Shown: positions 1 to 55,771, counted from the stretch's first letter. The stretch: 59,816 nt of DNA from an uncultured virus (IMG/VR IMGVR_UViG_3300042922_000886) (IMGVR_UViG_3300042922_000886:62001-121816); one strand, 5' to 3'. The notes: generated by a model from the letters alone, not told the origin. Made by a program: numbers and translations.

Positions 1-399
1 ATAAATCAAGTTTTTCAGGAGTTGGTTTTCACGACTATAAAAACTGCGAATTGTCTGTTTTGAAATTTGTTGACAATGAAAACAATGCTTACGTTTGTGA
101 AGGTTTACGTAATCTAAATAGTATTATTGAAAGAATTATGCAAAGAGTGAAAGACAATGCGATACAGTTACAAAGAATCGAAATCATCAATGTCGGAAGT
201 AATGTGTCATGATGGATAATAAATTTAAAATTGTCTGTTGTAAATGTGGAAGTGAAAGTCGTTGGTGGTATATCGAAAATGACTACACTTTGAGTCTTAA
301 ATGTAATAATGAAGATTGTGGAAACCAGAAAAATTATGAGGAAGATTAAAAGCAAATGAAAGGATTCTTGTATTGGATAAAATAAGAAAGGGCGGTTAA

Positions 400-1101
400 A
401 TGACAATAAGTTCTAAGCCTGTAAGTGCAAATATTTTATATAAAGTGGTTGATGAAAAAATATATAAGTTATGCTCAATATGTGAAGAATATAAGCCAAT
501 GAATGAGGAGAATTATAGTAAAAATAAAACCAATAAACGTGATGGCTTTCATCCTTACTGTAAACCTTGCAACAGTAGAAAATCTAGGCAATGGGAAATT
601 GATAATCCTGAAAAATATAAAGCGTTAAATAAAACAAAATTGCCTAGTAAGAATCCAGTTAGATTGGAACGCTTACGAACATATAGAAAGACTGAAAAAT
701 CTAAAGATTATATGACTGATTGGCGCAATAACAATAAAGATAAAATAAAAACATACAATGCATATAGATTGCAACACAAGACTCATGAGATAAGTCATAA
801 AGAGTGGGAATATTGCAAAACTTATTTCAATAACAGATGTGCTTATTGTGGTCTACACTACAATGATCATTACCGAATGTACGCAGGTGAACCCCAAAAA
901 ATTGATTTACACAAAGAACACGTTGACCACTTTGGTAGTAATAAAATTGATAATTGCGTCCCATCTTGTTTGTCTTGTAATTCAAAGAAACACAATAAAG
1001 AATTAGTTAGTTGGTATAATGAAAAAAATGTAAATTTTACGCAATATCGAATCCAAAGAATATATTTATGGCTTGCGGAAGACTATAAGAAAATCCAATA
1101 A
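400..1101 (+). CDS. HNH endonuclease
   Basis: N-terminal CxxC pairs; C-terminal CAYCG...EHVDH...N...NCVPSCLSCNSKK HNH motif. Confidence 0.85.
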   Translation: MTISSKPVSANILYKVVDEKIYKLCSICEEYKPMNEENYSKNKTNKRDGFHPYCKPCNSRKSRQWEIDNPEKYKALNKTKLPSKNPVRLERLRTYRKTEKSKDYMTDWRNNNKDKIKTYNAYRLQHKTHEISHKEWEYCKTYFNNRCAYCGLHYNDHYRMYAGEPQKIDLHKEHVDHFGSNKIDNCVPSCLSCNSKKHNKELVSWYNEKNVNFTQYRIQRIYLWLAEDYKKIQ

Positions 1102-1133
1102 AAGAAGTATTTTAAGGGGTGATGAAACGAAAA

Positions 1134-1286
1134 ATGAAAAACGCAAAAGAAATGAATCCCGCTGAACTTATTGATGAATTAGAGACACTTACATTGAAAC
1201 GATGGAATGCAAACTACACAGAAGGCTATAGACTTGATAATCGGTTAAGAGAACTTCGAATTGAAATGATGGAGAGAATGAAATAA
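1134..1286 (+). CDS. Small hypothetical protein (50 aa, MKNAKEMNPAELIDEL...)
   Basis: Read by hand; GGGGTGA RBS; bounded by junction palindromes. Confidence 0.6.
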   Translation: MKNAKEMNPAELIDELETLTLKRWNANYTEGYRLDNRLRELRIEMMERMK

Positions 1287-1316
1287 GTCATTTATTTGGA
1301 AAGGTGAGTTATAAAT

Positions 1317-1709
1317 ATGAATGTTTACAAAAGCCTTGGAGAAATTGTGAGTGATTATAATGCGGGTGTCTACAAGAGTACGCTGCCTTATCCTACCGGC
1401 AGATTTAGAGAGGATCATGTCTTTGATGAAGACCAATCAATAAAATGGAATAAAGATGAGGTTGTAAGAAGAAATAGCGAATACGACCAGAAAAGAAATG
1501 AGTACCGTGCTGATAACAATAGATTAGATAAGTTACTCAAAGATGATGTAACTTACAACTTGATTTATGATTTTGACTTGAATCAAGAACAGGCCGAATA
1601 TACTTATGACATTGCATATACTGAAAAGCATTCTAGTATGACTGACGTATTCTATTATGCGGTTGAATTAGCAGAGTATTTTGTGAAAATGAAAGTACTT
1701 GAAAGATGA
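1317..1709 (+). CDS. Hypothetical phage protein
   Basis: ORF track; AAGGTGA RBS. Confidence 0.7.
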   Translation: MNVYKSLGEIVSDYNAGVYKSTLPYPTGRFREDHVFDEDQSIKWNKDEVVRRNSEYDQKRNEYRADNNRLDKLLKDDVTYNLIYDFDLNQEQAEYTYDIAYTEKHSSMTDVFYYAVELAEYFVKMKVLER

Positions 1710-1746
1710 TAAAAGAGCGATTTTAATGGGAGGTGTGTTAGAGGAT

Positions 1747-2025
1747 ATGGATTGCCCGATTGATTTTGATTATAACAGATGCTCTTCAAAGGACTTCGGT
1801 TTGCAGTGTGATACATGTGTTCATGCTCCAGAGTTTCAAATTTATCAGCACGGTCTAATGTGGGTTGTATCAGACGATAAATACATTGCAACCGGCAAGA
1901 CAAGAGATGGAGCAATTGACAACTTCATTGAACTATTAAATAAAGAGTATGCTCGGTTGAAGCAAAAGGTCGATCAGGATATTCAAGAATCAAGAACGAA
2001 GCATCGGAAACTATGGAATTACTGA
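1747..2025 (+). CDS. Hypothetical Cys-containing protein
   Basis: ORF 1699..2025 with start moved downstream of the junction palindrome and RBS. Confidence 0.6.
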   Translation: MDCPIDFDYNRCSSKDFGLQCDTCVHAPEFQIYQHGLMWVVSDDKYIATGKTRDGAIDNFIELLNKEYARLKQKVDQDIQESRTKHRKLWNY

Positions 2026-2073
2026 GCAAATGAAAAAGCAATTTTATTTAATAAAACTATTCAATATAAATTA

Positions 2074-2391
2074 ATGAATAAAGAGGTGCGCTGCATGACA
2101 ATTATTCGTAAACGATTTATTGAACGAGACTATCTTTTTAAAAAGATCATGCTGAATAGCGAAGCAATTACGGAATCCATGGCCAATGAATTGTTGGACG
2201 ACATGAAATGCCCATTTGCTGATTATACTTTTTATTTCATTCCCATTGGAGCAGGATGGAGAACGGAAATCAAAGATAACGATTCGGGAATGCTTGTGCC
2301 GGTATCAGATATAACAGGATTTGCAAATGATTTTTATATTAAACAACTAATCGAACTTACAAAGAACAAACTCCAACAACAAATTGCGTGA
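2074..2391 (+). CDS. Hypothetical protein
   Basis: ORF track; GAGGTG RBS before internal Met. Confidence 0.6.
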   Translation: MNKEVRCMTIIRKRFIERDYLFKKIMLNSEAITESMANELLDDMKCPFADYTFYFIPIGAGWRTEIKDNDSGMLVPVSDITGFANDFYIKQLIELTKNKLQQQIA

Positions 2392-2585
2392 GGTGGATGT
2401 GTATGAGTATAGTTGACTTCGCAAAGAACATTTTAAAGGTTCCTCTGAATTTCTACCAAGTAGAACTTCTTGAATTGCTGCAGATCAGCGGAGATAGTGC
2501 CTTTTACTCTTCACGTCCACGCACACACGGCATGCTACTGATCCATGAGATTTACCAAAAATACAAGAACGCAGATTCAATGTAA
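2388..2585 (+). CDS. Hypothetical protein
   Basis: ORF track; overlaps upstream stop. Confidence 0.55.
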   Translation: MRWMCMSIVDFAKNILKVPLNFYQVELLELLQISGDSAFYSSRPRTHGMLLIHEIYQKYKNADSM

Positions 2586-2603
2586 TCTTCTGATAAGGAG
2601 AGG

Positions 2604-2795
2604 TTGGAGTCAGTGAGATGTAATGTATTCAGAAGATTAATGGATAGAATCAAGAGACAGAAGATACATGCTTCGGTAAATCGTATATGTGAAATTCAAT
2701 CAGAGGAAATAAACTTGCTGAGGGCTGAGAACCAATTGCTAAAGAGAATGATAGCAATGTTGGAGGAGGAAAATAAAAAAAAGAATAAAGACTAA
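2604..2795 (+). CDS. Hypothetical coiled-coil protein
   Basis: ORF track; AAGGAG RBS. Confidence 0.55.
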   Translation: MESVRCNVFRRLMDRIKRQKIHASVNRICEIQSEEINLLRAENQLLKRMIAMLEEENKKKNKD

Positions 2796-2834
2796 GGTTA
2801 CGGTTCATGTGCCAATAGTCCATAAGAGGCTCAG

Positions 2835-2898
2835 GTATACAAAAAGTATACGAGTATACAGTAGAATACCATTGATTTTATAAGGAGTGAAAGTATAC
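2835..2898. promoter_or_regulatory. Cluster of four GTATAC palindromes upstream of the RHH/coiled-coil gene (putative autoregulatory operator)
   Basis: GTATAC at 2835, 2846, 2854 and 2893. Confidence 0.5.
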
Positions 2899-2902
2899 CT
2901 TT

Positions 2903-3733
2903 ATGTCAGATATCCAGAAGCATACGACAATTAAAGTAAACGATGACATTAAAGATCGAATCAATACTTTGGTCGAAGAGTTGGGTGCCAGTAGTCAAAA
3001 AGATGCGATGGATTATTTGTTAGGTTTACATGCAGTCAAAAGAGAAATTGAGAGCGGTAAAGAAATTCCTCGGATCACTGACATGAAGTATCACTTTGCT
3101 CGTATCGAAGGTATTTTCACTGAGTTTGTACTAACATCAAGAGACCGTGAGGTTTTTGATGCTGAGACCATTAGTATACTGAAACAAACTATAGAAGATC
3201 AAAAGATCCAACTGTATGACAAGTCGATTGAGAATAGTAGTCTGAGAGAAAATTATGATCAATCTATGCAAGAGTTGACTACTAGGCACGAAAATGAAAT
3301 ATCTGTTTACTCTGCTGAATTTGACAGAGTAAAAGGTGTAAGTGCTCTTGTTAAAGAAAATACAGCCAAAGAACTTAAACAGATGGAGCAGCTGGTCGAG
3401 CAGTATAAGGAGTCAAAAGAGCAAGCTGAGAAGTTAGTCAAGTTAGCACAAGAAGCAAGCGAAAATGCTCAAAATAAACTTAATGAATATTCAAATAAGG
3501 TGAAGGAATATGACTTGCTTCAACAAGTGAATGAGGATCTGAAAAGCAAATTATCAGAAATTAAGAATTTGCTTAAAGGAAAAGAGTATGAATGCAAAGA
3601 AGCGATATTGACTACCGAGAGAAAGCGTCTCGAACAGGTTGGTAAATTGCGTGAAGAGTTAGCGTCTCAAAGAGAAATATATGCTGAACTCAAGATCGAA
3701 TCATCTCGGTTAAGAGGAGCACACGATAAATAA
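2903..3733 (+). CDS. Coiled-coil protein with N-terminal ribbon-helix-helix-like DNA-binding segment (KfrA-like architecture)
   Basis: HTTIKVNDDIKDRINTL strand-helix start; long E/K/Q heptad-rich remainder. Confidence 0.6.
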   Translation: MSDIQKHTTIKVNDDIKDRINTLVEELGASSQKDAMDYLLGLHAVKREIESGKEIPRITDMKYHFARIEGIFTEFVLTSRDREVFDAETISILKQTIEDQKIQLYDKSIENSSLRENYDQSMQELTTRHENEISVYSAEFDRVKGVSALVKENTAKELKQMEQLVEQYKESKEQAEKLVKLAQEASENAQNKLNEYSNKVKEYDLLQQVNEDLKSKLSEIKNLLKGKEYECKEAILTTERKRLEQVGKLREELASQREIYAELKIESSRLRGAHDK

Positions 3734-3762
3734 AATAAATAACAGAATAGGAGTTACTATAA

Positions 3763-4062
3763 ATGAAACTTGAAAAGTACCTTGAGGAAAACCATCCTGA
3801 TGTGCTTGGTCAATATCGTGCATTTATTAGAAAAGATACACTTCCCAAAATCGGGGTTACTGTAAAGACCATTCGAGGTGGATTTGGTGACTGGAAGGGT
3901 GGACGGCATCTTAGAGTAGTAGGTTATGGATATAAGGGAGAGAAAAGTGGTGGCGCGACATGGGGCGATAACTTCATCGTCTTAAGAGGGGATAGTCGGA
4001 AGGATGAGTACCTTTCAAGAATGGACGAATGGTGGAACGACTTTGTTATTGTGAATGAATGA
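3763..4062 (+). CDS. Hypothetical protein
   Basis: ORF track; AGGAG RBS. Confidence 0.7.
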   Translation: MKLEKYLEENHPDVLGQYRAFIRKDTLPKIGVTVKTIRGGFGDWKGGRHLRVVGYGYKGEKSGGATWGDNFIVLRGDSRKDEYLSRMDEWWNDFVIVNE

Positions 4063-4085
4063 ATTCACTATTTCATCGGAGGAAT

Positions 4086-4556
4086 ATGATGGAACAAATT
4101 AGCAAATACCACTATAAAACTTACGTAGGTTTCAAAGAGGATAATGGATATAGAATGAGTTGGAATTCAAGTCATCCAGATCTTGAGCCAACAGAAACAT
4201 TCAGTTTAGGTTATACAGATGTTTATTGTGTCTATTGTTGTGGTCAAGCGTATCCAATTCAAGCAGGACTAAAAGGAGTTGTATACGGCTACACCAAAAA
4301 CTATGATGTGACCGGTTATACATGTATCTGTGAAGCAGCCGAGAATGAAAAGTTACAAAGAAAAGAATTGAAGGAGTTACAAGAAAGACATAAAAAAGAA
4401 GAATTAGAACTGATGAGAAAGTTTCAACCACTTCTAAAGCAGGATAAACGGAAACGTCTTGAATTGAAGCATAAACGAGAATTGTATGAGCTTGAAAATG
4501 ATGAGAAATACGAAAGACAGATGTCGTTGAGAAGTAATGAAGTAGTTAGGAAATAA
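4086..4556 (+). CDS. Hypothetical protein with CxxC and coiled-coil tail
   Basis: ORF 4059..4556 with start moved to ATG after GGAGG. Confidence 0.7.
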   Translation: MMEQISKYHYKTYVGFKEDNGYRMSWNSSHPDLEPTETFSLGYTDVYCVYCCGQAYPIQAGLKGVVYGYTKNYDVTGYTCICEAAENEKLQRKELKELQERHKKEELELMRKFQPLLKQDKRKRLELKHKRELYELENDEKYERQMSLRSNEVVRK

Positions 4557-4569
4557 AATCGGTAATTCG

Positions 4570-5037
4570 TTGGGAGTTGAAAATAAAAATATGCAGGATA
4601 TAAATATAGTGATTCAATGGTTAAAAGAAGGAAAAAAGATTCGACCAAAGCAGCGCAATATGATGATACAAACATCTGCCCCATGTATAAAATTGACTTT
4701 TAAAGATGGAACATCAAAATTAAGTGGTTTTTCACCAACAAGTGATTATTATGGCGCTGGCTGGATTGAAGTACAAGCAAATGATAAGGATATTGCCAAA
4801 GTTGAGATTGTTGGTTATGGATCTGACAGAGTATATAAAGTGGAGTACATTTATTTCAATCCTCAATGTAATAGAACTCTGTGCAGATTGACAACAGGAG
4901 AAACTGCAGATTATCCATTCGATTTGACAGATTTTATCTATGATGAGTTTGAAATTGTCACTGATGTTGAACCACTTTTATTGACACTAAAAGAAGTTGA
5001 GTTAAAGTTTGGAAGACCAGTTCGGATTATTGGATAA
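4570..5037 (+). CDS. Hypothetical protein
   Basis: ORF track. Confidence 0.65.
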   Translation: MGVENKNMQDINIVIQWLKEGKKIRPKQRNMMIQTSAPCIKLTFKDGTSKLSGFSPTSDYYGAGWIEVQANDKDIAKVEIVGYGSDRVYKVEYIYFNPQCNRTLCRLTTGETADYPFDLTDFIYDEFEIVTDVEPLLLTLKEVELKFGRPVRIIG

Positions 5038-5097
5038 GCAATAAAATTTGTGTTTCATCTTATAAAACCAAAATTAAACTAAAGGGAGAACTAGTAA

Positions 5098-7137
5098 ATG
5101 GAATTTAAACAATTCAAGGATATGCTGCAAGCAAATTTTCAACAAATGTCTAAAGAAGTAACGCACTTATTTGAAGTGAACTTGGATAAGGATGAACTCT
5201 GGAACTTATACTTAGACAGTTTCCCAGATGGAACTAATTTGATTTTCAGAGAACGTAGAGAATACGACTGCTCTTGCTGTAGACAATTTGTTAAAAATAT
5301 TGGCAATGCAGTTGTGATTAAAAACAATACATTAACTACCATTTGGGATTTTCAAACTAATGACGAGAAATTCCAACCTGTTCTCGATGTGCTATCTTCG
5401 TTTGTTAAATCTAAAGCCGTTTCTGACGTATACATTAGCAAATTTAAGAAGATGGGAACAGATAAGAATTTCGAAGAGGCTAACGGTAGTGCGAAGGAAT
5501 GGCAGCACCTTTACCTTGAACTCCCTGATAAATATGTAGATAAGAGTTCTCGCTCTGAAGGTGATATTAAGGGAACTTATCGTGACACCAGAAATGTCTT
5601 CAAGAGATCCTTAGATGAAATTACTGAAGATAGTCTTCTAACTGTTCTGGAACTCATTTCACAAAACTCGCTCTATAAAGGCGAAGAGTGGAAATCGGCA
5701 TTGACTGAATTCCATAAGCACAAGAAAGAATACAACAAGTTACCAACTCAACAAGAAAAATCAAATTATGCTTGGGAACAATCTGTAAAAGTTGGTGGTG
5801 CTATCGGTAGAATACGAAACCATAGCATGGGTACATTGCTGATTAACCTGAGCGAAGGAATGGATCTTGATACAGCCATTAGAAAGTACGAAGTAATTGT
5901 TGCTCCGTCTAATTACAAAAGGCCGAAAGCAATCTTTACTAAGAAGATGTTAGATGATGCAAAAGAAACGTTGCAGCAACTTGGATATATGGATTCACTA
6001 AATCGGCGTTTCGCTACATTGGACGATATTACAGTCAATAATATTTTGTTCTCCAATAAAGATTCTGCGAAACGAATTAACGGTTCGGATGTATTCGATG
6101 AAATGTTGGGCGAAGTTGCTATTAATCCAAAGAAATTTTCTAAAGTTGAAGAAATTCCGGTTGAAGCATTTATCAAAGAAGTGCTGCCGACATCTAAGGA
6201 AGTCGAAGTGCTCCTTGAAAACAAACATTCCAACAACATGGTTTCCTTGATTGCTCCAGAAAATAAGGACGCCAAGACTATGTTTAAATGGAGAAACGGA
6301 TTTAGTTGGGCATACTCTGGAAACATTACCGACAGTGAAATGAAAGATCGAGTGAAGTCAGCAGGTGGCAATGTAGAAGGGGTATTGCGATTCTCGATTC
6401 AATGGAATGACGGCAATTTCAACGGTAATGATTTCGACGCTCACTGTATCGAGCCAAATGGCAATCAAATTTATTACGGTAGCAAGAAAAACTGGGCCAC
6501 TACTGGTGAATTGGATGTAGATATCATTCGTCCCGAAAGAAGCAAGCCAGCAGTTGAAAATATTACATGGACAAATAGAGATAAGATGGTAAAAGGAACT
6601 TATAAATTCTTTGTTCACTGCTACTCTAACAATGGCGGTCGGGATGGATTTAAGGCAGAGATCGAGTTCGGTGGACAAATTTATTCCTTTGAATACAACA
6701 AAGAACTTCGTCAAGGCGAGAAGGTGCATGTTGCAGAAGTTACTTTCGATCAAGATGGATTTACAGTTAATGAAAAACTGCCTTCCAATGTATCCTCTCG
6801 CGACATTTGGAATGTAAAATCGAATCAATTTGTTCCGGTTTCGGTCGTCATGTATTCGCCTAACTATTGGGATGAGCAGCATGGCATTGGACATAAGCAT
6901 TATTTCTTCATGTTGAAAGATTGCGTTAATCCTGAAAATCCAAATGGATTTTACAATGAATTCTTGAAGGAGGAGTTAGTTCAACACAAACGAGTATTTG
7001 AAGCATTGGGCGGCAAGATGGCAGTTAAAGATGTAGATGATCAATTGTCGGGTGTTGGATTCTCTTCGACAAAACGAAATGAGCTGTTGGTAAAAGTAAA
7101 AGGGCAAACCGAACGAGTATTGCAAATTAAATTCTAA
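5098..7137 (+). CDS. Large phage protein with N-terminal DCSCC motif and a YfaP/DUF2135-like beta domain
   Basis: 679 aa; DFDAHCIEP...ELDVD...AVENITW resembles the DUF2135 signature; GGGAG RBS. Confidence 0.65.
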
Positions 7138-7163
7138 ATTAAACTAAGGAGATGTTTTAGATT

Positions 7164-7556
7164 ATGACAAATGCAAATATGTTTGAGGTAGCAGTTCGGA
7201 CTAAGATGCGGTTTCCGTTTAAAGGCGTAATTTCTGTAGAGGATTTGTGGGATTTGTCGGTTGAGAATTTGGATACAATTTTCAAAACACTCAATTCGCA
7301 ACTGAAGCAAGTAAATGAAGAAAGTTTATTGAGCACAAAAACGAAAGAAGACAGAGAACTGGACGTAAAAATCGAAATCGTAAAATACATTGTTAATGTG
7401 AAATTGGAAGAGCGAGATAAGCAGCAAAAAGCGAAAGAGCAAAAGGAAAAGAAGCAGAAGATTCTTGAGCTAATCTCTAACAAACAAGATGAAGCCTTGC
7501 AAAATAAATCCATTGAAGAACTTCAAGCAATGCTTAACGAATTGGAAACTAAGTGA
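7164..7556 (+). CDS. Coiled-coil phage protein, probable partner of the upstream 679-aa protein
   Basis: RFPFKGVISVEDLWDL motif; tightly linked; AAGGAG RBS. Confidence 0.7.
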   Translation: MTNANMFEVAVRTKMRFPFKGVISVEDLWDLSVENLDTIFKTLNSQLKQVNEESLLSTKTKEDRELDVKIEIVKYIVNVKLEERDKQQKAKEQKEKKQKILELISNKQDEALQNKSIEELQAMLNELETK

Positions 7557-7846
7557 GGGAAAGTGGGGTGGTGGTTTCTTACCACTGCCCCATGAAACTC
7601 GTCTTACATTTGAAAGGAAATAGAAAATTGCATAAAAGATTAGCAGATAGATTTGTTAAAGCGAGACTTGTACGTCCGACAAATAAGTATTTCACACATG
7701 ATCAAGGTAGTTATGTAAATGGTAACTCACACAATACACTAGTGGAAGCAGAGATGTATCAACAAAAATATCCAAGCAGACGTATTGTGTTGATAACATG
7801 GCGTGGAGAATGGATTACAATCAAGAAAGGCAAATATGAAAGTTAA
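7553..7846 (+). CDS. Hypothetical basic protein
   Basis: ORF track. Confidence 0.5.
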   Translation: MRESGVVVSYHCPMKLVLHLKGNRKLHKRLADRFVKARLVRPTNKYFTHDQGSYVNGNSHNTLVEAEMYQQKYPSRRIVLITWRGEWITIKKGKYES

Positions 7847-7875
7847 TAAAATTCGTATTTTATTGGAGGGTTAGT

Positions 7876-8046
7876 ATGGAACTGAGTGGAAAGTTTGAAT
7901 TTCTGCGTAATATTGATAAATTGATTCAGCGATCAGAGAGATGGATTAAAGACGCTACTGAACGTAAGGACTGGAGTGATGTGGACCATTACAGCGGCCA
8001 AAAGAAAGCTTTTGAAGAAGTCAGGGATATGATTTTCGATCAATAA
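7876..8046 (+). CDS. Small hypothetical protein (56 aa, MELSGKFEFLRNIDK...)
   Basis: Read by hand; GGAGGG RBS; flanked on both sides by junction palindromes. Confidence 0.65.
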   Translation: MELSGKFEFLRNIDKLIQRSERWIKDATERKDWSDVDHYSGQKKAFEEVRDMIFDQ

Positions 8047-8165
8047 AATCCGCATTTTATAAAATAAAAATATAGAGTACTCATTTAATTTAATTAAGAA
8101 TACCTCTTATACATAACATATCAGTCACCTTAGAGAATGACAAAAAAATCAAAGAGGTGATTTTT

Positions 8166-8336
8166 ATTGGACGGTATTTATTGGAGAAAATGATTGGCTA
8201 CGATCCGAACACTAAAGTTGAAACTTGGCAAAAGGTAATGGAGAGCGATGATTTGGATACTCTAAAAGAATTTCTTGGTAATAATTATCGAATCATTGAT
8301 CGTGCAACTTCGACAATTAAAACTTCGAAAGAGTAA
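8166..8336 (+). CDS. Small hypothetical protein (possible ATT start, MGRYLLEKMIGYDPN...)
   Basis: Read by hand; GAGGTGA RBS 5 nt before ATT. Confidence 0.5.
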   Translation: MGRYLLEKMIGYDPNTKVETWQKVMESDDLDTLKEFLGNNYRIIDRATSTIKTSKE

Positions 8337-8394
8337 ATGAGAAGAATTGAACGATTTTAGAATTTTACAATAGAAGAATAAATCAGAAGAAATA

Positions 8395-8420
8395 TAAAAA
8401 ACCTGCCAAATCAGCAGGTC
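8395..8420 (-). terminator. Rho-independent terminator of the minus-strand moron
   Basis: ACCTGC/GCAGGT stem with adjacent A-run (U-tail on the minus strand). Confidence 0.55.
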
Positions 8421-8477
8421 GATATGGAACTCCTTTTTCTTCTTGTTGTTATTATTTTTTGTGCTATTGATCGAGAA

Positions 8478-9095
8478 CTACTTTGACAATATTTTACTTG
8501 CATTCGCAACAATATCTTTTTTTAGCTTCGCGTAGCCTTCGTTGTGTTTCTCTACTTCAGTTTCTCTTGCGTCCCTGTTGTCAAGATTATATTTTCCGTA
8601 GTGTGCACCAGCTACATGATATTTTTGCTCTTGTGCATTCCAACTCAAGAGGAACATATACTTAAGGCCGCTTTGGGCTTTTCTATAGTCTTCTAGTGGG
8701 GTTTCGATTTTACCCAGTTTTTCATCTTGTATAAATGCAGTTGTCTCAATAATCGGAATTACTTGATTGGCTTGAACATCTCCTTTGACATTTTTTAAAA
8801 TTCGTTCTACTCTAATGTCAGTTAAAGTTCTATTTACAACTACGTTAGCCGGTCCTTCATACGAGATTTTGTACGGTGCGCTATTCGGCGTTACAGTTGC
8901 CTCAACCACTAAATGAACATTACTATCGTTTAAAAGTTCTTCTGCACTGCTATAAGGATAAATCCAAGCAGCACTCGATCTCACTATTATTTCGTCATTC
9001 TTTTTATTATTTATGAAAATTAGGTAAACGACAGAAATTAGAATAATTAGAACTATAACAGTTATTAATGTTGCTTTTTTTGTTTGAACAGACAT
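8478..9095 (-). CDS. Membrane-anchored extracellular protein, partner of the metalloprotease
   Basis: Basic N-terminus plus single hydrophobic helix; GGGAGTGA RBS. Confidence 0.75.
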   Translation of the reverse strand: MSVQTKKATLITVIVLIILISVVYLIFINNKKNDEIIVRSSAAWIYPYSSAEELLNDSNVHLVVEATVTPNSAPYKISYEGPANVVVNRTLTDIRVERILKNVKGDVQANQVIPIIETTAFIQDEKLGKIETPLEDYRKAQSGLKYMFLLSWNAQEQKYHVAGAHYGKYNLDNRDARETEVEKHNEGYAKLKKDIVANASKILSK

Positions 9096-9148
9096 TAGAC
9101 ACGATCACTCCCTTTGTATGAACTAAAACTAACTGGTCATTTCAAATC

Positions 9149-9781
9149 CTAATAATCATTAAGAAATTTATATTGTGCGTGTTGAATATCAGTTGTTGTA
9201 AGTGTATAAGTTGAAGCACCAGCATTCATTACATTTGATCCCGTATGTGCAGGGGAATTAGTAAGGTGACTCACTCCTAAAGTATGACCGGTTTCATGCG
9301 TAACAATTGTATGTCTAAGTGATGGTCCGAATCCTGACAAGGTTTTAAGATAATCATGATGAATCACAACAATTGCATGTTTGTATCCTATGTCAGTACC
9401 TTCAACACTGTTTGAAATATCTAGATCTACTGAATTATAAAAGAATACTTGCCCACCTACTAATGGATCAAGTGTACCTATGTAGTATTTAATCTGAGCG
9501 TTTGATTCTGAACTGCTGTTGAAAGATGGTATATAAGCTTGTGGTCCCCACTGAGACACAGCTTCTGTCACAGAGTCACTGTAGCCATATTGTGTTATTG
9601 AGAGGTCGCTCCAGTAACCTAATGAACTAGGAGCCGATGAGTAACCTTCAAATTTACCTCCATACAAGTGGCACCCATTGCACTGAGTGTAATCTGCTGA
9701 TGCAGGAACCGATGAAAAAGATGCAAGCAGTATAATAAACATAATCGTGTAAATCTTATATTTTTTTCTCTTTGGGGACAT
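9149..9781 (-). CDS. Secreted metzincin (matrixin/M10-M57-like) zinc metalloprotease
   Basis: Signal peptide ending ASA; HETGHTLGVSH zinc motif; Met-turn NVMN; GGAGGT RBS. Confidence 0.85.
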   Translation of the reverse strand: MSPKRKKYKIYTIMFIILLASFSSVPASADYTQCNGCHLYGGKFEGYSSAPSSLGYWSDLSITQYGYSDSVTEAVSQWGPQAYIPSFNSSSESNAQIKYYIGTLDPLVGGQVFFYNSVDLDISNSVEGTDIGYKHAIVVIHHDYLKTLSGFGPSLRHTIVTHETGHTLGVSHLTNSPAHTGSNVMNAGASTYTLTTTDIQHAQYKFLNDY

Positions 9782-10241
9782 TACTATACCTCCATATTAT
9801 AAGTCTTTTTGAATACCTTGTGTCTTCATAAAAAATTACCAATTATTAAAGAACAATGTTCAACAAACAAACACTTAACAAGACTGAATCATTTTATTCC
9901 CTCCTATACTTTTTATTTTTCTAGGAACACCAACGATGATTTGCGTCCTTTCCGTTGAAACCATTCACCACCTTTTGTAATATATGGTACTATCAATTTC
10001 CAATATAAGTAAATGGTCGCCAAATACTATTTTTGACGCAAAAAAACCAATAAATTGTCGAATATGTAATTAAAAGGGCATGGTATTATAATACAGTTTT
10101 GTGAAAAGAAATCAACGTAAGTGGATGAATTATAATAAATAAATATATATAATAAATTATAATTGTTATACAATGTTATTGTAAATATATGGGGCGATTC
10201 GTGGTATAATTAAGGAATAAAAGTCTGATTTTAAGGGGAGA

Positions 10242-10433
10242 TTGGTGATGGTTCGTGCTTCTAGAAGTGATAGTTTGTTTTACAGTATTAAAGAACTTCA
10301 TGGGAAATATATAGTTGCATTGTATCGGCAAAACGGAGAAGAGATAAGGACATATGACCAACCTTTTAGTACAGAAGTAGATGCGATAAATGCGGCAAGA
10401 GTGGCAGTTAAAGTCTTTGAGGAGTCCAAGTGA
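10242..10433 (+). CDS. Hypothetical protein
   Basis: ORF track; downstream of extended -10 TGGTATAAT at ~10202-10210. Confidence 0.6.
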   Translation: MVMVRASRSDSLFYSIKELHGKYIVALYRQNGEEIRTYDQPFSTEVDAINAARVAVKVFEESK

Positions 10434-10666: not shown

Positions 10667-10692
10667 TTTTATAGGGGAGGAAATTATTAAAA

Positions 10693-45060: not shown

Positions 45061-45099
45061 ATAAAATAGGAAATTTATCTGCCGAGCAAGGAGGGAGTA

Positions 45100-45856: not shown

Positions 45857-45965
45857 TTAATTGAAGCCATTAGAAATGGTATTTGATTCAGGAACACACT
45901 TAGTGAATACTAAAAATATCAATAAAGTTTTGCTCGAATGAATGAGCAAATAAAAGGAGACAATT

Positions 45966-46616
45966 TTGGATAAGGTTAAATTAAAATATATAAAAATACG
46001 GCTTGAATTAGAAAAACAACAATTGACAGATATGCTTCCTGAAGAATTCAGAGAAAGGTTTCAAAAACTTGCATATATAGCCGGTGGATGTATTTACTCA
46101 ATTTATAATAACACAGAACCAAAAGATTATGATTTCTTTTTACGTGATAGTAAATTAGCCAATGATTTGAGAAAATATTTTATTTCACTATCAGGTTATC
46201 ACGGGAAAACAGTGTCAGGTGGTATGTATAAAGATAGTTCCTTAGTAGTAACTGAAAATGCCGTTACACTCGGAAAGCATCAGATAATCACTCGTTGGGT
46301 AGGTGAACCGATGGAAGTTTGTGGAGAATTCGATTTTTGCCATCTTCAGTACTACTACGATGGCAACGAAATTGAAACAATCAGTGATTTTGAATTTCTA
46401 GAAAGTAAGACATTGCGATACAACGAGAGTCGTGCGCGGGACATCGTTGGTTCGGTAATGAGGCTGAATAAATTCGTTGAACGGGGGATGAAAGCCCCGC
46501 AAAAAGAAGTGAGTAAAATGTTGCTCAAATTAAAAGAAGTCGGGTTCAATGAGCGCGAAGTTGAAATTTTAGAAGAAGCAAAAGAAAGGTCTGATACAGA
46601 TCATTTTGGTTCGTGA
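45966..46616 (+). CDS. Nucleotidyltransferase-like protein (poly(A) polymerase/CCA head-like motif)
   Basis: YIAGGCIYS...KDYDFF; FDF; R..KF.ERG. Confidence 0.65.
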   Translation: MDKVKLKYIKIRLELEKQQLTDMLPEEFRERFQKLAYIAGGCIYSIYNNTEPKDYDFFLRDSKLANDLRKYFISLSGYHGKTVSGGMYKDSSLVVTENAVTLGKHQIITRWVGEPMEVCGEFDFCHLQYYYDGNEIETISDFEFLESKTLRYNESRARDIVGSVMRLNKFVERGMKAPQKEVSKMLLKLKEVGFNEREVEILEEAKERSDTDHFGS

Positions 46617-46819
46617 GGTGCATAATGGTTAATCATTTTGTTTTAACAGATGAAGAGTTAGTTGACGAATTAATTGATCTTATCGAGTGCTCGGTCGAAG
46701 TCGACTACGATCTTGTTGATAATGACTTTGACATCAATACTGACTGCAGTTTTCATTACAAGAGAAACAGAGAGTATCACGAAATTCGTAAAGAACTGTT
46801 ATATAGATTGAGCAAATAA
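46613..46819 (+). CDS. Hypothetical acidic protein
   Basis: ORF track; GAGGTG RBS. Confidence 0.6.
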   Translation: MRCIMVNHFVLTDEELVDELIDLIECSVEVDYDLVDNDFDINTDCSFHYKRNREYHEIRKELLYRLSK

Positions 46820-46864
46820 AATAAAAGAGTATTTTCATTGACCTAAGAATAGGGAGGAAACGAG

Positions 46865-47758
46865 TTGAAAGCAAGTACAAATGAAGATTTCAAATTGATT
46901 GCAATTAAAACAAAAGATAGAGTATACATTTCTGACAATATTACTAATTCGAGTTATTTCAATTCACAAATTAAATATTTCCTATTCGATGAAACGGAAG
47001 CAAAAAGTACATATAAGAGCGACTGGTACGAGGTTTCCGCGATTCCCAATAAAATAGAAAAGAGAATTCCTAAGCAAGTTATTAAATCTTGGTATGAGTT
47101 GAAGGAGGCACATTATAATACTAGTTTACCAAGAGTACTTTATAGCAAAGATTTCGCGGAAGATGGAGAATACGAATCAGTTTATGGACTTTATCAGATT
47201 AAAAATGAATATGATGAAGGTGGATTAGAATCTATTAAATTTCAACTAAACGTTATTGAAGAACTCGATGATTTTGTTATTACAAGAAGTGACTACGAAC
47301 TACAACATCCAATTCTTGATAAGATTCAAACACATCCGATTTTACTCACAACTAAACACTGTAGCCTAAGCAGAGAAGATAGTTATAAAATTGTACGTAA
47401 ATATATTAAAGAAAATATTAATCATAAATATGCAACCATTACAAGTGACTATGATTTTTGCTTTACAGTTGCAAAGAAAATTGACCATGATCCTGAACCT
47501 TATCAAGTTAATGTAGGCAAAAGAAAACCGAAGTATGAAACAAGATATCAGAGAACACGAACAGTAAAGACTTACGAAATTGCCCCAAAAGCATATCAAA
47601 ACTATCCTGTAATTGAGCCATTTCAAGGTAAAAATGAACAGGACCTAAAAAATAATATTCAATCATATTTGGATGAAGTTATGGCAGTTATTAATAAACC
47701 ACTTGTTGAATGTGAGCATTGCAAAGGATTGGGGGTTGTAAAGACAAATGAAATTTAA
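46865..47758 (+). CDS. Phage protein with C-terminal CxxCxGxG
   Basis: ITSDYDFCFTV; CEHCKGLG. Confidence 0.7.
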   Translation: MKASTNEDFKLIAIKTKDRVYISDNITNSSYFNSQIKYFLFDETEAKSTYKSDWYEVSAIPNKIEKRIPKQVIKSWYELKEAHYNTSLPRVLYSKDFAEDGEYESVYGLYQIKNEYDEGGLESIKFQLNVIEELDDFVITRSDYELQHPILDKIQTHPILLTTKHCSLSREDSYKIVRKYIKENINHKYATITSDYDFCFTVAKKIDHDPEPYQVNVGKRKPKYETRYQRTRTVKTYEIAPKAYQNYPVIEPFQGKNEQDLKNNIQSYLDEVMAVINKPLVECEHCKGLGVVKTNEI

Positions 47759-48017
47759 GACAAGTTTTCTGAGAAAAGAACTTGATTTGCCTGATGCCGC
47801 GATTAAAGACGAGATTACTGATACTTCCCGATGGAGTATCCATCATAGAATTGTTTTTGAACATAATGGCATATTTTATCAAACCTACTATTCTGTCGGA
47901 GCAACAGAGATGCAAGATGAAGGTCCATGGGAGCATGAGTCAGAAGTTGATTGTGTTGAGGTTGAATTAAAACCGACAACCGTTATGAAGTGGGTTCCTG
48001 TTAAAAATAATAAATAA
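47748..48017 (+). CDS. Hypothetical phage protein
   Basis: SRWSIHH...YSVGATEMQDEGPWE. Confidence 0.7.
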   Translation: MKFKTSFLRKELDLPDAAIKDEITDTSRWSIHHRIVFEHNGIFYQTYYSVGATEMQDEGPWEHESEVDCVEVELKPTTVMKWVPVKNNK

Positions 48018-48097
48018 AACTATGCAATAATAAATATATGTGATAATATTAAAATGAAGGTGAATGCCCCTTTCATATTAATATAAATATTAGGGAG

Positions 48098-48322
48098 ATG
48101 AAACAAGTGAATATTGAGTCAATGCAAGTAGTGTCCGAACGTAACGGTTTTGTCATACGTGAAGACAAGGATAATCGTTTCAAGTATGTTGTTTATCATC
48201 CTAATTTCGATGGTGTATATATCGATGCATTTAAGTACCTAGAAGAAGCTGAAGAGTTTTGCGATGAAGAAGACCCAGTTGTTTGTGCCGAAGATATTCA
48301 AAATGGCTTCCTATGTACATAA
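48098..48322 (+). CDS. Hypothetical protein
   Basis: ORF track; AGGGAG RBS. Confidence 0.65.
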   Translation: MKQVNIESMQVVSERNGFVIREDKDNRFKYVVYHPNFDGVYIDAFKYLEEAEEFCDEEDPVVCAEDIQNGFLCT

Positions 48323-48460
48323 TTTACGATTGCTTTAAAAAAGAAAACATTCGGATTTATAAGGTTTTTGAAGATTTTCCCTTCATTGAGTATTTATCTC
48401 GAGACGACATAAATACTGGCGGATTTTACATGATTACAACTGAAGAGAGGGGAATAAAGA

Positions 48461-49294
48461 ATTAAACTTGATATCACAGGACAAAAATTTGGGAAACTCA
48501 CTGCAATTAAATATGTTGGCAAAGATAATCGACGTGGATCATTGTGGTTATGCGAATGTAATTGCGAACAAAAGACTCAAAAAATCTGCAAACTAGGCAA
48601 ATTAAAAAGTGGAGGAGTTAAAAGTTGCGGTTGTTTAGGAACTAATAACACCCACAGCCTTTCTAATCATAGGCTATACAAGATTTGGAGCGGTATGAAG
48701 ATTCGCTGTTATGACCGCAATGAACCTAATTATCCTAATTACGGAGGCAGGGGCATTAAAGTTTGTGATGAATGGTTTAATAAAGAAAATGGTTTCATTA
48801 ATTTTTATAATTGGGCAATAGAAAATGAATACCGAGGTGATCTATCAATTGATCGAATCGATGTTAACGGGAACTATGAACCTTCGAATTGCAGATGGGC
48901 CACAAGGAAGGTCCAAGGAAATAATAAAAGAAACAATAGAGTAATAGAAATAAACGGAGAAGAAAAGACAATAACTGAGTGGGCTGATGAATATAAGTTA
49001 AATCCTTCCACATTTATCCACAGAATAAAGCTAGGTATATCCGGAGACCTGTTGTTATCCCCTGCTGGCTCGGTTCCTAAAATACCTTCTCATACTCGCA
49101 AAATAGTTCAGTTAACATTAGATGGCAAATTCATAAGAGAATATAATTCTTCTATGGAGGCGGAGAGGGTGAATGAAGGCGTGAGGGCAAATTGTATAAC
49201 AAGAGCCTGTCAAGGAAAAATAAGACATCATAAAGGATATAGGTGGATTTATAAAGAAAACTATAATGCAAAGAATGAAAACGATGAGAATTAA
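48461..49294 (+). CDS. HNH-type homing endonuclease with C-terminal NUMOD1-like domain; start extended to ATT
   Basis: In-frame KLDITGQKFGKLT upstream of track start 48542; SIDRIDVNGNYEPSNCRWA; IVQLTLDGKFIREY...KGYRW. Confidence 0.85.
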   Translation: MKLDITGQKFGKLTAIKYVGKDNRRGSLWLCECNCEQKTQKICKLGKLKSGGVKSCGCLGTNNTHSLSNHRLYKIWSGMKIRCYDRNEPNYPNYGGRGIKVCDEWFNKENGFINFYNWAIENEYRGDLSIDRIDVNGNYEPSNCRWATRKVQGNNKRNNRVIEINGEEKTITEWADEYKLNPSTFIHRIKLGISGDLLLSPAGSVPKIPSHTRKIVQLTLDGKFIREYNSSMEAERVNEGVRANCITRACQGKIRHHKGYRWIYKENYNAKNENDEN

Positions 49295-49385
49295 TGAATT
49301 TTAAAAGTCCAGTTATGTATCTTGGAATCCAAGAGAGCCTTGAAAGATAAAGCTGATATATGGTCGAAAATACATATATAACCGG

Positions 49386-49415
49386 TTGATATACGAACGT
49401 TTGTTCGATTATAAT
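49386..49415 (+). promoter_or_regulatory. Sigma-A promoter with a consensus LexA box in the spacer
   Basis: TTGATA 49386-49391; CGAAC-GTTT-GTTCG 49394-49407; TATAAT 49410-49415. Confidence 0.85.
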
Positions 49416-49431
49416 AAAGAAAAACCAGCAG

Positions 49432-49824
49432 GTGATACATATGACCAAACCGGTACAATCTGAGGAAGAACTCAGCCTTATAAAAGAATATGTCCTTTAC
49501 TCTGTTATCATGGATACTATAGAGAAAGACATTGTAACAATGAAGGAAGTTAAACTGAAGATGGCAGAAGTATACACTCGTTCGCTTCGAAAAGTACAGA
49601 ATGCTGCAACCGAAAAACATTCTCGGGTTAGAAAAGAACTGAGGAATCGTGGAATCAAGGTTTATGAAGAAATTCGAGACAGGGAACATCTTAAATCAAA
49701 ATTTATTTGCCGAGGCTATCATGGCGAGTTGCTGATTTTGTGGAACGTAATAAAAGTTGAAGTTGAGGAGCGACTATATACGTATATGGATATCGATCCA
49801 AATGAAGATACATTGATACCATGA
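49432..49824 (+). CDS. Putatively SOS-regulated hypothetical protein
   Basis: First gene behind the LexA box; AGGTGA RBS. Confidence 0.75.
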   Translation: MIHMTKPVQSEEELSLIKEYVLYSVIMDTIEKDIVTMKEVKLKMAEVYTRSLRKVQNAATEKHSRVRKELRNRGIKVYEEIRDREHLKSKFICRGYHGELLILWNVIKVEVEERLYTYMDIDPNEDTLIP

Positions 49825-49879
49825 ATTTATTTTCATGAAATATAATGGATAGATTTTTTATCCAAACGAGGTGAAAATC

Positions 49880-50215
49880 ATGATAAGCAAAAAACTTAGC
49901 GGTAATGGTTTATGGGAGTCCTCAAGAATGGTGCTTCCAGAACATAGGATCAGGATGTTTAAACATAATGAAGAAAGAGGGTACAAGGAAAAGCCAAGTT
50001 TGCATGAAGATGAGTTGGAGATGTTATTTCAGAATATAAATTACTCCATCAATCAAAGAGAAATAGTAAGCATGACAGTATTCGGAGTAGGACAAGACCG
50101 GGTTATTAATGGTGTTGTTACGTACATCAATTATGACAAAAAGAAGCTGAGAATTGAATTTGATGATGGTTATGAGTTTGTAGATTTTGATGAGATTATA
50201 AATGTGCGTATGTAA
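49880..50215 (+). CDS. YolD-like family protein
   Basis: GNGLWESSRMVLPEH...KPSLHEDELE; SOS box upstream. Confidence 0.85.
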   Translation: MISKKLSGNGLWESSRMVLPEHRIRMFKHNEERGYKEKPSLHEDELEMLFQNINYSINQREIVSMTVFGVGQDRVINGVVTYINYDKKKLRIEFDDGYEFVDFDEIINVRM

Positions 50216-50270
50216 TGCTCAATAATGGTCAATAAAAGAGACATTTTATTAGATGAAAGCGAGGTGAAAG

Positions 50271-53791: not shown

Positions 53792-53808
53792 TCCTCTAAG
53801 GGAGGAGC

Positions 53809-54888
53809 ATGATGAGTGATGTTCTAACAGAAATAAGAAAAAAATTGTTACAAGATGACAATATACATACATTGCTTGAAAAGGCAGAGTGTGAAAATAT
53901 AAAACGTCGAAGCAACAGGTATGAAGCAACGTTGCCAAGCAGGTTTAATTCAGATAACGATAGAGCCGTGCAAGTGTATTTAAATGAATCAATAACCTGT
54001 AAAATAAGAAGTCGAACCTTTTTAGGAAAAGGTATTTATGACTTAATTTCATATATTGTATTTGGATGTATAGAAATAAAAGAAATAAATAAATGCCTTC
54101 CGAAATCAAAAAGATGGATTTGTGAGCAATTGGGTTTTTTTGAGTATCTAAATAACTCATGGTATCATGAAAAGCCAAAGGAAGACCCGTTAAAATGGTT
54201 AAAAGATTTAAAGAGGAAACGAAACAAGGAAATTAAGATAATTGAAAATACCGTGCTAGATGATACTGTATTTAATCAGTACATTATGTATCCTTACATT
54301 AATTATTTGAAAGAAGGCATCGACTATAACACGCAGCTCGAGTTTCAAATCGGTCTTGACCTAGTTAGTGAACGCGTAATCTTTCCTATACATAATAAAT
54401 ACGGAGACTTGATTGGAATAAAGGGTAGAACTCTAGATCCAGATTACAAAACTAAAAAAATCCCGAAGTTTATGCATTTATATAATGTAAATATGATTTC
54501 CGAGCTGTACAACTGGCATCGCGCGCTTTACTACATAATGGAGCAGAAAGAAATCATATTTTACGAAGCTGAAAAAACTTGCTGGCTAAGTACTCAATGG
54601 GGATATAGAAATTGCGTTGCTTTGGGGAGCAGTGAGATAACCGAGTGGCATGTCCAGATGGTCAAGGAACTTGGCTTAGATATCCGAATCGTGTTGGGTT
54701 ACGACAAAGATAAGGAAGCAAAGGAAATAAAGGAAGCAGCTAAGATGTTTGGATTCACTCACTCAATCAACGTTATGTGGGATGGGAGGAATGCATTTTC
54801 TGCAGAGAAGAAGCACTCTCCAACGGATTTAGGCAAAGATGCATTTGACCAACTATACAATGACAGGTATAAATACAAAATAACATGA
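53809..54888 (+). CDS. DNA primase (YorJ-like, TOPRIM)
   Basis: RVIFPIHNKYGDLIGIKGR; FYEAEK; LGYDKD. Confidence 0.85.
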   Translation: MMSDVLTEIRKKLLQDDNIHTLLEKAECENIKRRSNRYEATLPSRFNSDNDRAVQVYLNESITCKIRSRTFLGKGIYDLISYIVFGCIEIKEINKCLPKSKRWICEQLGFFEYLNNSWYHEKPKEDPLKWLKDLKRKRNKEIKIIENTVLDDTVFNQYIMYPYINYLKEGIDYNTQLEFQIGLDLVSERVIFPIHNKYGDLIGIKGRTLDPDYKTKKIPKFMHLYNVNMISELYNWHRALYYIMEQKEIIFYEAEKTCWLSTQWGYRNCVALGSSEITEWHVQMVKELGLDIRIVLGYDKDKEAKEIKEAAKMFGFTHSINVMWDGRNAFSAEKKHSPTDLGKDAFDQLYNDRYKYKIT

Positions 54889-54916
54889 CAAATAAAATCG
54901 ATATTTCATTCAATGG

Positions 54917-54955
54917 TAGCAAGCACAACTTGGAAAATAGTGCTTGCTATTCTTT
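54917..54955 (+). terminator. Rho-independent terminator after primase
   Basis: TAGCAAGCAC/GTGCTTGCTA stem followed by TTCTTT. Confidence 0.75.
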
Positions 54956-55150
54956 GTATCTTGATATAAAATAAAAGTATGAAATAAACTAATTGATGAG
55001 GAGGCGGACTAAATATTCGATGTTTGTCTGGTGGATCATTGGAATATGTATTTACTTCTGTTTAGTAGTACTTATCGCAAAATGCTGTGGAGGAAATACA
55101 ACTTTCGATTATAAAATAAAACATAATAATACATATGGGGAGAATGAGCG

Positions 55151-55483
55151 ATGAAGTTGTATCAATTGGGCAAAGGGGTATATAAAACTTACCGGGAAAC
55201 AGTTAAAGGGAATCAAAATATCACTCCACAACAAGCACAAAAGAAATTGACTCGAAACATTATACTGGCTTTTAAAGTTTCAAAAAGCAATAATGAAAAT
55301 TTAAAGCAACGGTACTTCTATGGTAACTTGCACATACTCGTAGTTGGAAATAAAATCGTCTGGATCAAAAATATTAAGCAGAATGGCAACTGGTTTTATA
55401 AGGATCAGAAAAAGTATGATGAATTGAATGTGCTGCTTGGTATTGAAAATGATTCTGAAACTATTAATCAAAGAGTCAGTTAA
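55151..55483 (+). CDS. Hypothetical basic phage protein
   Basis: TYRETVKGN...KLTRNI...YGNLHI. Confidence 0.7.
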   Translation: MKLYQLGKGVYKTYRETVKGNQNITPQQAQKKLTRNIILAFKVSKSNNENLKQRYFYGNLHILVVGNKIVWIKNIKQNGNWFYKDQKKYDELNVLLGIENDSETINQRVS

Positions 55484-55498
55484 TAAGAGGGAGAAAAC

Positions 55499-55729
55499 AT
55501 GAGTGAGGCACTAAAAAATGCCCTATACGATGTAGTAGAAAAAGCAAAGAAATACGATGCGATTATACATCTTAGAAAAAATGGAGAAATCCATTGTGAT
55601 TTTTGCGGTAAGTGTCAATGCGATGTTAAGAAGTTAGTAGCTGGACCAAGAGTTTTTATTTGCGACGAATGCATAGAACTATGTGTTGAAGTTATTAAAG
55701 AAGAGAAAGTGAATGAGGAAGACAAATAA
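55499..55729 (+). CDS. ClpX C4-type zinc finger protein
   Basis: CDFCGK...[20 protein letters not shown]. Confidence 0.9.
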
Positions 55730-55771
55730 AATTATGCTTTCATTGAAGAAAGGGGCGCCTATTGGAAAAAT

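Follow-up and report, generated by a model that had tools for sequence, protein, structure and literature searches.

Uniquely addressed 18-bp palindromic sites at accessory-gene junctions of an SPbeta-like phage: a probable substrate for site-directed gene exchange

What does a short palindrome that recurs at one gene junction after another do for a phage? The question is raised by an uncultured virus (IMG/VR IMGVR_UViG_3300042922_000886; 121,816-bp contig, here G000), the right half of which (positions 62001-121816, 59,816 nucleotides) is referred to as the window and supplies the coordinates below unless another source is given. G000 is SPbeta-like, with tape measure, YonK, HU, YopQ-like, MrpR-like, Sak4-like, helicase, and primase genes, and among named homologues, those closest to its MrpR-like and YomM-like proteins come from Paenibacillus. 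The initial annotation of the window reported over 50 copies of the pattern ATRAAA-N6-TTTYAT between accessory genes; we call the 6-bp core of such a site its centre and the DNA between two neighbouring sites a slot. The presence of these 18-bp palindromes at accessory-gene junctions is confirmed. The exact pattern occurs 33 times in the window (shuffle mean 0.27, largest 2) and 60 times with one mismatch allowed (shuffle mean 5.11, largest 13), so the figure of over 50 holds for the relaxed pattern but not for the exact one, and the four sites quoted as examples were all found. The 6-bp core is likewise a true preference, as a scan of spacers from 0 to 20 gave 33 matches at N6 and 0-2 at every other length. 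Over the entire 121.8-kb contig there are 53 exact and 40 one-mismatch sites, and little information content lies outside the 18 bp. Across all sites of six genomes, centre position 1 is T-rich (106/252) and position 6 is A-rich (124/252), a weak seventh arm pair.

Placement was scored against open reading frames (ORFs) from a simple in-house caller. An ORF starts within 60 bp downstream of 27 of the 33 exact window sites and one site lies deep inside a called ORF, which bears out the description of a right arm followed almost at once by a ribosome-binding site (RBS) and the next gene; the left arm, said often to supply the upstream stop codon, does so at only about a quarter to a third of sites (9/33 exact, 8/27 one-mismatch). 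Sites mark 51/93 and 16/39 junctions in the two accessory zones of G000, 3/38 in its structural arm, 2/20 in the final 9 kb, and 0/13 in the regulatory-replication block (yopQ/mrpR-agr-Sak4), so that block is site-free as first described. Thirty-three single-gene units of the form site-RBS-ORF-site are present in G000, with a median product of 80 aa. The window has no site 3' of 55,743, as had been noted, but this is a gap of about 5.7 kb rather than a general limit, since sites resume past the contig end in the related virus G001. The site-free stretch at 55772-59816 holds about 14 small, often overlapping ORFs, rises to 44.5% GC in its last 1.8 kb, and is identical in G001, where sites resume 1.4 kb beyond the end of the G000 contig.

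Inverted half-sites around a fixed 6-8-bp overlap are the geometry of core-type tyrosine recombinase sites, and the palindromes have it; whether DNA is exchanged at them was addressed by comparison with relatives (G001, G002, G004, G005, G007, G008, G012, and G017). Among 50,697 named phage records no direct DNA relative of the array was found, and a query with the MrpR-like protein alone returned one IMG/VR record and zero GTDB contigs. G001 (183,208 bp) is 97.8-99.9% identical to G000 in long blocks outside G000 57.9-86.2 kb and patchily so within that interval, and 17 of the 31 window slots between matched sites have no blastn or blastp match to the partner DNA. Breakpoints coincide with the sites. 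Of 34 alignment ends, 18 are no more than 10 bp from one, compared to 5.4% of random and 14.2% of junction-zone positions, which supports the recombination-site half of the initial annotation. The alignment of the unit at 11350..11595 begins and stops at its sites, and the neighbouring slots on both sides are replaced; centres CCTGAA and ACTGAC, which bound a 107-aa ORF in the window, enclose a different, shorter insert in G001 and are adjacent in G008. Upstream of the window, G000 has one TGGTTC site; at the same place G001 has a 610-bp unit (125-aa ORF) with TGGTTA on one side and TGGTTC on the other.

In 34 G000/G001 site pairs the centres are identical in 29, differ at one position in 3, and at two in 2, an agreement that is partly selection because the pairs were matched by eye; an unbiased count gave 81 collinear identical centres against a null of 3.1. 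Thirteen site pairs share only one flank. Seven of these are identical sites and six are informative: three that share the upstream flank differ only at site positions 12-18, and three that share the downstream flank differ only at positions 3-5. The switch in identity is therefore bracketed within the centre, between positions 5 and 12, where core-type sites have their exchange point. An exception at 10442 has a differing right arm despite an identical slot behind it. Two homologous sites in G001 (~81,947 and ~88,621, equivalent to window 14345 and 21782) have a 7-bp and a 5-bp centre, one base having been gained or lost; both are breakpoints, and they are possibly slipped or dead sites.

Assembled contigs of three soil sequencing runs were also inspected. 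In run X2 (window 5001-25000) the window-like form, at a depth of about 27, occurs beside a G001-like form at about 245 (about 1:9), and because both haplotypes are present in one sample, exchange partners meet in nature. Nineteen of the 28 ends of 14 joints in X2 lie within 10 bp of a site, though these repeat the G001 breakpoints and are not independent. Circle joints were not listed among the contigs of these runs.

The centres are retained in order across far more distant relatives. Another 25 IMG/VR records were found via MrpR homologues, and 23 of them have exact sites (3-64 each; reversed-pattern control 0-5); seven of the 25 were compared, the six richest enough to compare plus G012, with G007 among them covered in part. 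Collinear identical centres number 23 for G000/G002 (null mean 2.2, maximum 4, 30 shuffles), 12 for G000/G008 (null 1.5, maximum 3), 8 for G000/G004 (null 2.1, maximum 5), 31 for G004/G005 (null 2.2), and 28 for SPbeta/phi3Ts (null 0.9). The proteins common to G001 and G002 or G004 have median identities of 44% and 41%, respectively. Matched sites have no protein-homologous flank on either side in 23/23 cases for G000/G002 and 12/12 for G000/G008, and the same holds for 11/11 in G002/G004 and 18/31 in G004/G005 (blastp E 1e-3 on 250-300 bp, which remote homologues can escape). In the second array zone, for example, centres GGTAGA, ATTCAT, CCTGTA, and TAGGAA occur in the same order in G002 with unrelated flanks. 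Where matched sites have unrelated flanks (98 pairs), agreement at the variable arm bases is 65% and 61%, against 54% and 49% for unmatched pairs, and the flanks are near background; the shared part is therefore the centre. Centres shared between G000 and SPbeta, phi3Ts, G005, G007, G012, or G017 are not above chance, and the address books are therefore lineage-specific. The centres behave as slot addresses kept over long evolutionary distances.

Within a genome, addresses do not recur. In 12 of 13 genomes, when sites with up to one mismatch are counted, all centres are different, no two are reverse complements, and none is its own reverse complement. Such cases number zero among 93 sites in G000 (5.4 expected, P 0.003) and zero among 124 in G001 (10.6 expected, 0/3000 shuffles), with P values of 0.004, 0.001, and 0.012 for G002, G004, and G017. 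The lone repeat seen in G000 is TAACGG at 17805 and 18896, and the right arm of the first copy has two mismatches. Unique centres are what a core-matching recombinase would demand: between repeated centres it would delete the DNA, and with inverted or palindromic centres it would invert it. Neighbouring centres are more similar than chance in G000 (3.65 vs 4.33 differences, 0/2000 shuffles), as they are in G001, G002, G004, and G008 and not in G005 or G017, and tandem paralogues in G007 and G008 lie behind CATTGT, CATTGA, and CAATGT, as if new addresses arose from near-match reactions.

We consider it most probable, at roughly 0.78, that crossovers are made by a tyrosine recombinase where the sites of two phage genomes have equal centres, and that a slot is swapped by two such crossovers. 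The site would be a core-type crossover site of two symmetric ATRAAA half-sites flanking a 6-bp overlap. Its partner would be the equal-centre site in another phage genome, either a co-infecting phage or a resident prophage, and not a neighbouring site, because strand exchange needs matching overlaps; this overlap-homology rule is established for the tyrosine recombinase family. A first crossover would join the two genomes or swap their arms, and a second at the next shared centre would replace the slot with the gene that the partner carries there, with no need of homology and with gene order, orientation, and RBS context preserved. Rare reactions between near-match centres would add, drop, or duplicate a unit and make new addresses.

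Two intact-looking tyrosine recombinases are predicted elsewhere in the element, where the initial annotation had suggested looking, both outside the window. The YomM-like protein P0001, which has a site 3 bp past the stop codon of its gene, keeps R168, K205, H278, R281, H305, and Y314, all invariant in 59 homologues. Its structure model (pLDDT 91) has XerA and Cre as best fold matches and XerA as best sequence match, and it falls far below every Xer (XerA, XerS, XerC, XerD) and IntI cut-off. The YopP-like protein P0002 has H-S-L-K instead of H-x-x-R, a change also present in SPbeta YomM, and no sequence match in PDB. A further integrase lies at the record end in both G002 and G004, which leaves YomM and YopP spare in those two. 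In each of five Lactobacillus phages the single PF00589 protein is YomM-like, making YomM the sole recombinase common to all array-bearing phages examined. One of them, Lenus, has no YopP or MrpR match; it has 18 TAAAA-N6-TTTTA sites and Nyseid 16, of which 16 are collinear with a flank switch at 6. Lactobacillus phages B2, P1, and Ldl1 have 6, 7, and 4 sites, and more distant Lactobacillus pairs share 0-1 centres each, not above chance. Given the rest of the model, the odds that the enzyme is the phage's YomM-like protein are, on this comparative evidence, about even.

Model phages also have the sites: SPbeta contains 14 exact ones and 34 of the form TAAAA-N6-TTTTA, and a block 99.97% identical between SPbeta and phi3Ts starts at one site and ends within another. 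The site at SPbeta 116,414 has a centre (TATTCC) in common with phi3Ts 107,396, and seven of 24 phage records that match SPbeta 115,900-117,000 have their match end exactly on its last base. TGTAAG (83,687) and GTAAAA (86,885) are likewise centres common to SPbeta and phi3T whose flanks are unrelated. Site counts are 21 in Tsamsa, 15 in Izhevsk, 24 in E3, and 10 in a Staphylococcus SPbeta-like phage, and zero in SPO1 and Bastille.

Several observations weigh against a recombinase acting at these sites, or against YomM as that recombinase. Sixteen of the 34 G000/G001 alignment ends lie more than 10 bp from any site, and no crossover, circle, or cointegrate was observed in the assembled contigs. 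In the eight smaller sets the uniqueness of centres does not reach significance, and one pair of centres in Lenus is reverse-complementary. Homologous gene pairs of at least 60% identity lie behind unrelated centres in 4 of 14 cases (two families; 14 of 19 rows kept, the five dropped being one ORF assigned to two nearby sites), so genes must also reach slots in some other way. For a tyrosine recombinase, 6-bp half-sites are short. The YomM-like carriers Sundance, VFW, PfEFR-4, and PBC4 have no N6 excess and 949, AM9, and SEP9 only a roughly twofold one, and no variant array emerged when gapped palindromes were sought de novo in Sundance, VFW, PfEFR-4, 949, AM9, and SEP9. The Sundance protein is close to the YomM-like protein of G012, yet Sundance has no array. 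G004 and G005 share 31 centres, yet their YomM-like proteins are from different clades. Sak4 and other replication proteins are also common to Lenus, and co-occurrence therefore does not single out YomM. Three laboratory hybrids of phi3Ts and SPbeta (Hyb1-3, mapped in part over ~72, 29, and 60 kb) crossed in long homology or away from sites, with a 116-bp duplication in Hyb1 lying about 500 bp from the nearest exact site; site-directed exchange is therefore at most a minor route in a recA+ host. The hybrid study places 15 of 16 junctions at homology (bioRxiv 10.1101/2020.05.06.055103).

Three observations stand beside these. The YomM-like genes of G004 (17,672-18,748) and G005 (18,306-20,587; both in oriented coordinates) lie between the same centres, GATGGA and TAACTC, and from this position the recombinase gene itself looks to have been swapped between the two. 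PBC4 has TRAAA-N7-TTTYA 10 times (0-5 at most other spacers), and its recombinase is a long-branch outlier. The one non-homologous hybrid junction is described as 'following yosA' (bioRxiv 10.1101/2020.05.06.055103); it may be the SPbeta 116,414 site, but no record with the joint turned up and it was not counted.

Other explanations must account for the same centres. The strongest, which we hold to be unlikely, is that the palindrome is a protein-binding site with another job, such as regulation or DNA organisation, and that Sak4/SSB annealing or RecA recombines the short stretch of identity between equal sites, so that swaps gather at them without a site-specific enzyme. Ordered conservation and avoidance of repeats are also predicted by this model, but little is shared beyond the 6-bp centre in the 98 matched pairs, and it leaves unexplained why the spacer is strictly 6 bp while its sequence is free yet conserved, and why self-palindromic centres are avoided. 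Integron-like shuffling, in which single genes are excised as circles and reinserted elsewhere by a homology-tolerant recombinase, was one of two models offered by the initial annotation. The 33 single-gene units, one insertion bracketed by near-identical centres, gene families that lie behind different centres in different phages, and the G007/G008 paralogues behind near-identical centres all agree with it. We rate it as improbable nevertheless: centre order is kept across distant phages and it is the gene between fixed centres that changes, the centres flanking a unit differ and are unique per genome, which would block excision by a core-matching enzyme, and neither an integron integrase nor the arm covariation of a folded single-strand site was found.

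The second model of the initial annotation makes the sites a dense set of operators for a repressor, for instance the MrpR-like protein; in that case they would play no part in exchange. It would account for the 27 of 33 exact sites just upstream of RBSs, and when 14 named phages are ranked by exact sites, the top four are all among the five that encode MrpR. An operator has no reason to conserve or diversify a centre that is not read, however, and as the sole explanation it is already contradicted by the ordered conservation of centres around unrelated genes; Lenus has an array without MrpR and Sundance MrpR without an array. The known MrpR target, the SPbeta repeated element (SPBRE), is a 15-bp motif with about ten promoter copies (PMC10516654). 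Its consensus, rebuilt from the ten promoters named there and possibly different from the published logo, is YAAAWAATATGTATA, with 11 matches in SPbeta and none in G000, and no SPBRE-like repeat stood out among G001 12-mers. Both are repeated intergenic motifs of SPbeta-like phages that encode MrpR, but SPBRE is non-palindromic and sits at promoters, and SPbeta holds the two at different places. The site is not SPBRE, and we give the operator array very little weight. An RNA hairpin serving as terminator, processing, or translation-coupling signal would suit sites between stop codon and RBS and is the least credible of all. Mean folding energy is -0.9 kcal/mol for the 33 exact 18-mers, an A-C mismatch occurs in 14/33 window sites, Rfam gave no match, and the variable bases of the two arms show no covariation (Fisher P 0.77; six genomes, 252 sites), so the stable covarying stem of an intrinsic terminator or structured RNA is lacking, as the initial annotation foresaw in calling the stems too weak. 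The hairpin is already refuted by the absent covariation, and the arms are probably protein half-sites rather than a stem.

Exchange by a recombinase that matches centres has its closest parallel in the dif modules of Acinetobacter Rep_3 plasmids, where host XerC/XerD act at pdif sites, recombination requires identical or near-identical spacers, and modules are replaced via a cointegrate (PMC13141974). Both systems have many core-type sites with a 6-bp spacer that bound accessory modules, and single modules are replaced between equal spacers. A pdif site is 28 bp long and its XerC and XerD arms differ; successive sites face opposite ways, and spacers recur within one plasmid, which leads to inversions and excisions. 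The phage sites have none of these features. They have symmetric 6-mer arms unlike the printed pdif arms, they number 60-120 per phage genome with unique, ordered centres, and the enzyme is probably phage-encoded. Near-symmetric arms are found in the single-recombinase Xer systems XerH/difH, XerS/difSL, and XerA, and the difH left arm as printed has an ATGAAAA end beside the central region that resembles the left arm here (PMC5357621). Those systems differ from the array in having one site per chromosome with 10-11-bp arms for dimer resolution. On this comparison the array would be a variant of spacer-matched Xer-type module exchange.

Integron attC sites fold as single-strand hairpins, and cassettes enter at one attI next to intI and have their order shuffled. 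The array resembles an integron in its promoterless-looking single-gene units bounded by recombination sites, and differs in its conserved order and in having neither IntI nor a folded attC-type site: the site is 18 bp with outer flanks barely complementary, the array lies 30-100 kb from the YomM-like gene, and the IntI profile TIGR02249 gave P0001 46 bits (cut-off 265) through the C-terminal motif only and no match to P0002 or P0003. In engineered recombinase-mediated cassette exchange, heterospecific lox or FRT sites stand on either side of a cassette, and the mismatch between the two allows a swap with a donor and prevents excision; the array shares this logic but is natural, with dozens of serial addresses, and in phage genomes. 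In the modular theory of phage evolution, too, exchange is steered to gene borders by short conserved stretches at the joints of mosaics. These boundary or linker sequences are proposed to serve as substrates for homologous recombination, and most junctions are said to lack them (PMC3029335). Here, by contrast, one palindromic class with slot-specific centres marks about half of the accessory junctions.

The features discussed are located in Table 1. Directly 3' of the mrpR-like gene is an agr-like module (26925-28695, plus strand) of a membrane protein, AgrB, and a LytTR protein, with a 41-aa ORF at 28096-28221 that is a possible AgrD; the module is a candidate lysis-lysogeny communication system replacing arbitrium. 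Counter-defence-like cargo of the array includes the Gad1 homologue (46865-47758), a macro-domain DarG-like protein (22367-22819), and a GmrSD N-terminal domain protein (18083-18904); PADLOC gave three weak matches among 42 window ORFs. The slot TCCGCA-GTCTGA (8478-9781, minus strand) holds two opposite-strand ORFs (205 and 210 aa, no family) that are absent from G001. Two tandem phrog_2367 paralogues occupy 29602-31576 (plus strand), an isolated site preceding the first and the second being linked to the SPbeta YorF family via Lenus. Outside the window, a DarA/DarB-like anti-restriction set is encoded at G000:C1:39813-50183; it consists of a DarA C-terminal domain protein, a 928-aa protein of unknown function, and a 1006-aa fusion of N6-methylase and SNF2 helicase.

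Table 1. Location of sites, arrays, and associated genes (window coordinates unless prefixed with G000).
Feature	Position	Strand	Remarks
Main array	356..23881		21 exact and 17 one-mismatch sites among small co-oriented accessory genes; extends upstream of the window; unrelated DNA in 17/31 slots relative to G001
One-mismatch site	7592..7609		G001 identity runs to the last centre base (7603); right arm differs
Example unit	11350..11595	+	Site GATTGG to site GACTCG; 99.5% identical to G001
Example slot	12646..13012	+	Site CCTGAA, RBS, 107-aa ORF (12675-12998), site ACTGAC
MrpR-like protein	25765..26763	+	Weighed as binder, judged unlikely
Isolated exact site, centre GATGAA	29561..29578		24 bp upstream of 305-aa ORF at 29602
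Sak4-like ssDNA annealing protein	31659..32651	+	phrog_124, E 6e-37; enzyme of the rival microhomology model
Second array zone	34514..50249		9 exact and 10 one-mismatch sites; identical in G001
Site GAGTAT, then Gad1 (Gabija anti-defence) homologue	46821..47758	+	PF25705, E 6e-115; cargo example
Final two exact window sites, centres TCGATA and TTATGC	54892..55743		Downstream of primase gene
YomM-like recombinase P0001	G000:C1:10384-11367	-	Candidate enzyme, outside the window
YopP-like recombinase P0002	G000:C1:35674-36714	+	Candidate enzyme, outside the window

A wider proposal, which we advance tentatively and would not yet bet on, is that SPbeta-like, Tsamsa-like, and some Lactobacillus phages carry a dedicated, self-encoded exchange system: a YomM-like enzyme and genome-wide, uniquely addressed sites that may allow homology-free, order-preserving exchange between phages as distant as ~40% protein identity. 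An address pair would then be a locus with unrelated genes as its 'alleles', anti-defence genes and others, the recombinase gene being one. Single-gene mosaicism in phages, long a puzzle, is usually ascribed to illegitimate or relaxed homologous recombination followed by selection. If the proposal is true, mosaicism would here have a specific enzymatic cause, unnoticed in the model phage SPbeta. Literature searches and the available part of a comparative SPbeta preprint (10.1101/2021.11.22.469490) turned up nothing on the motif; journals behind a subscription, among them that of the 1999 SPbeta genome paper, lay outside the search. The system would also supply dozens of natural, mutually non-reacting 18-bp sites that may be useful for DNA engineering. 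For the phages themselves, one class of site with slot-defining centres at the junctions makes a site-specific route directly testable in B. subtilis with SPbeta and phi3T, in which these sites and a YomM gene are both present, would assign a role to a conserved orphan recombinase, and would let accessory genes, including those for anti-defence, be catalogued as per-slot allele series without homology.

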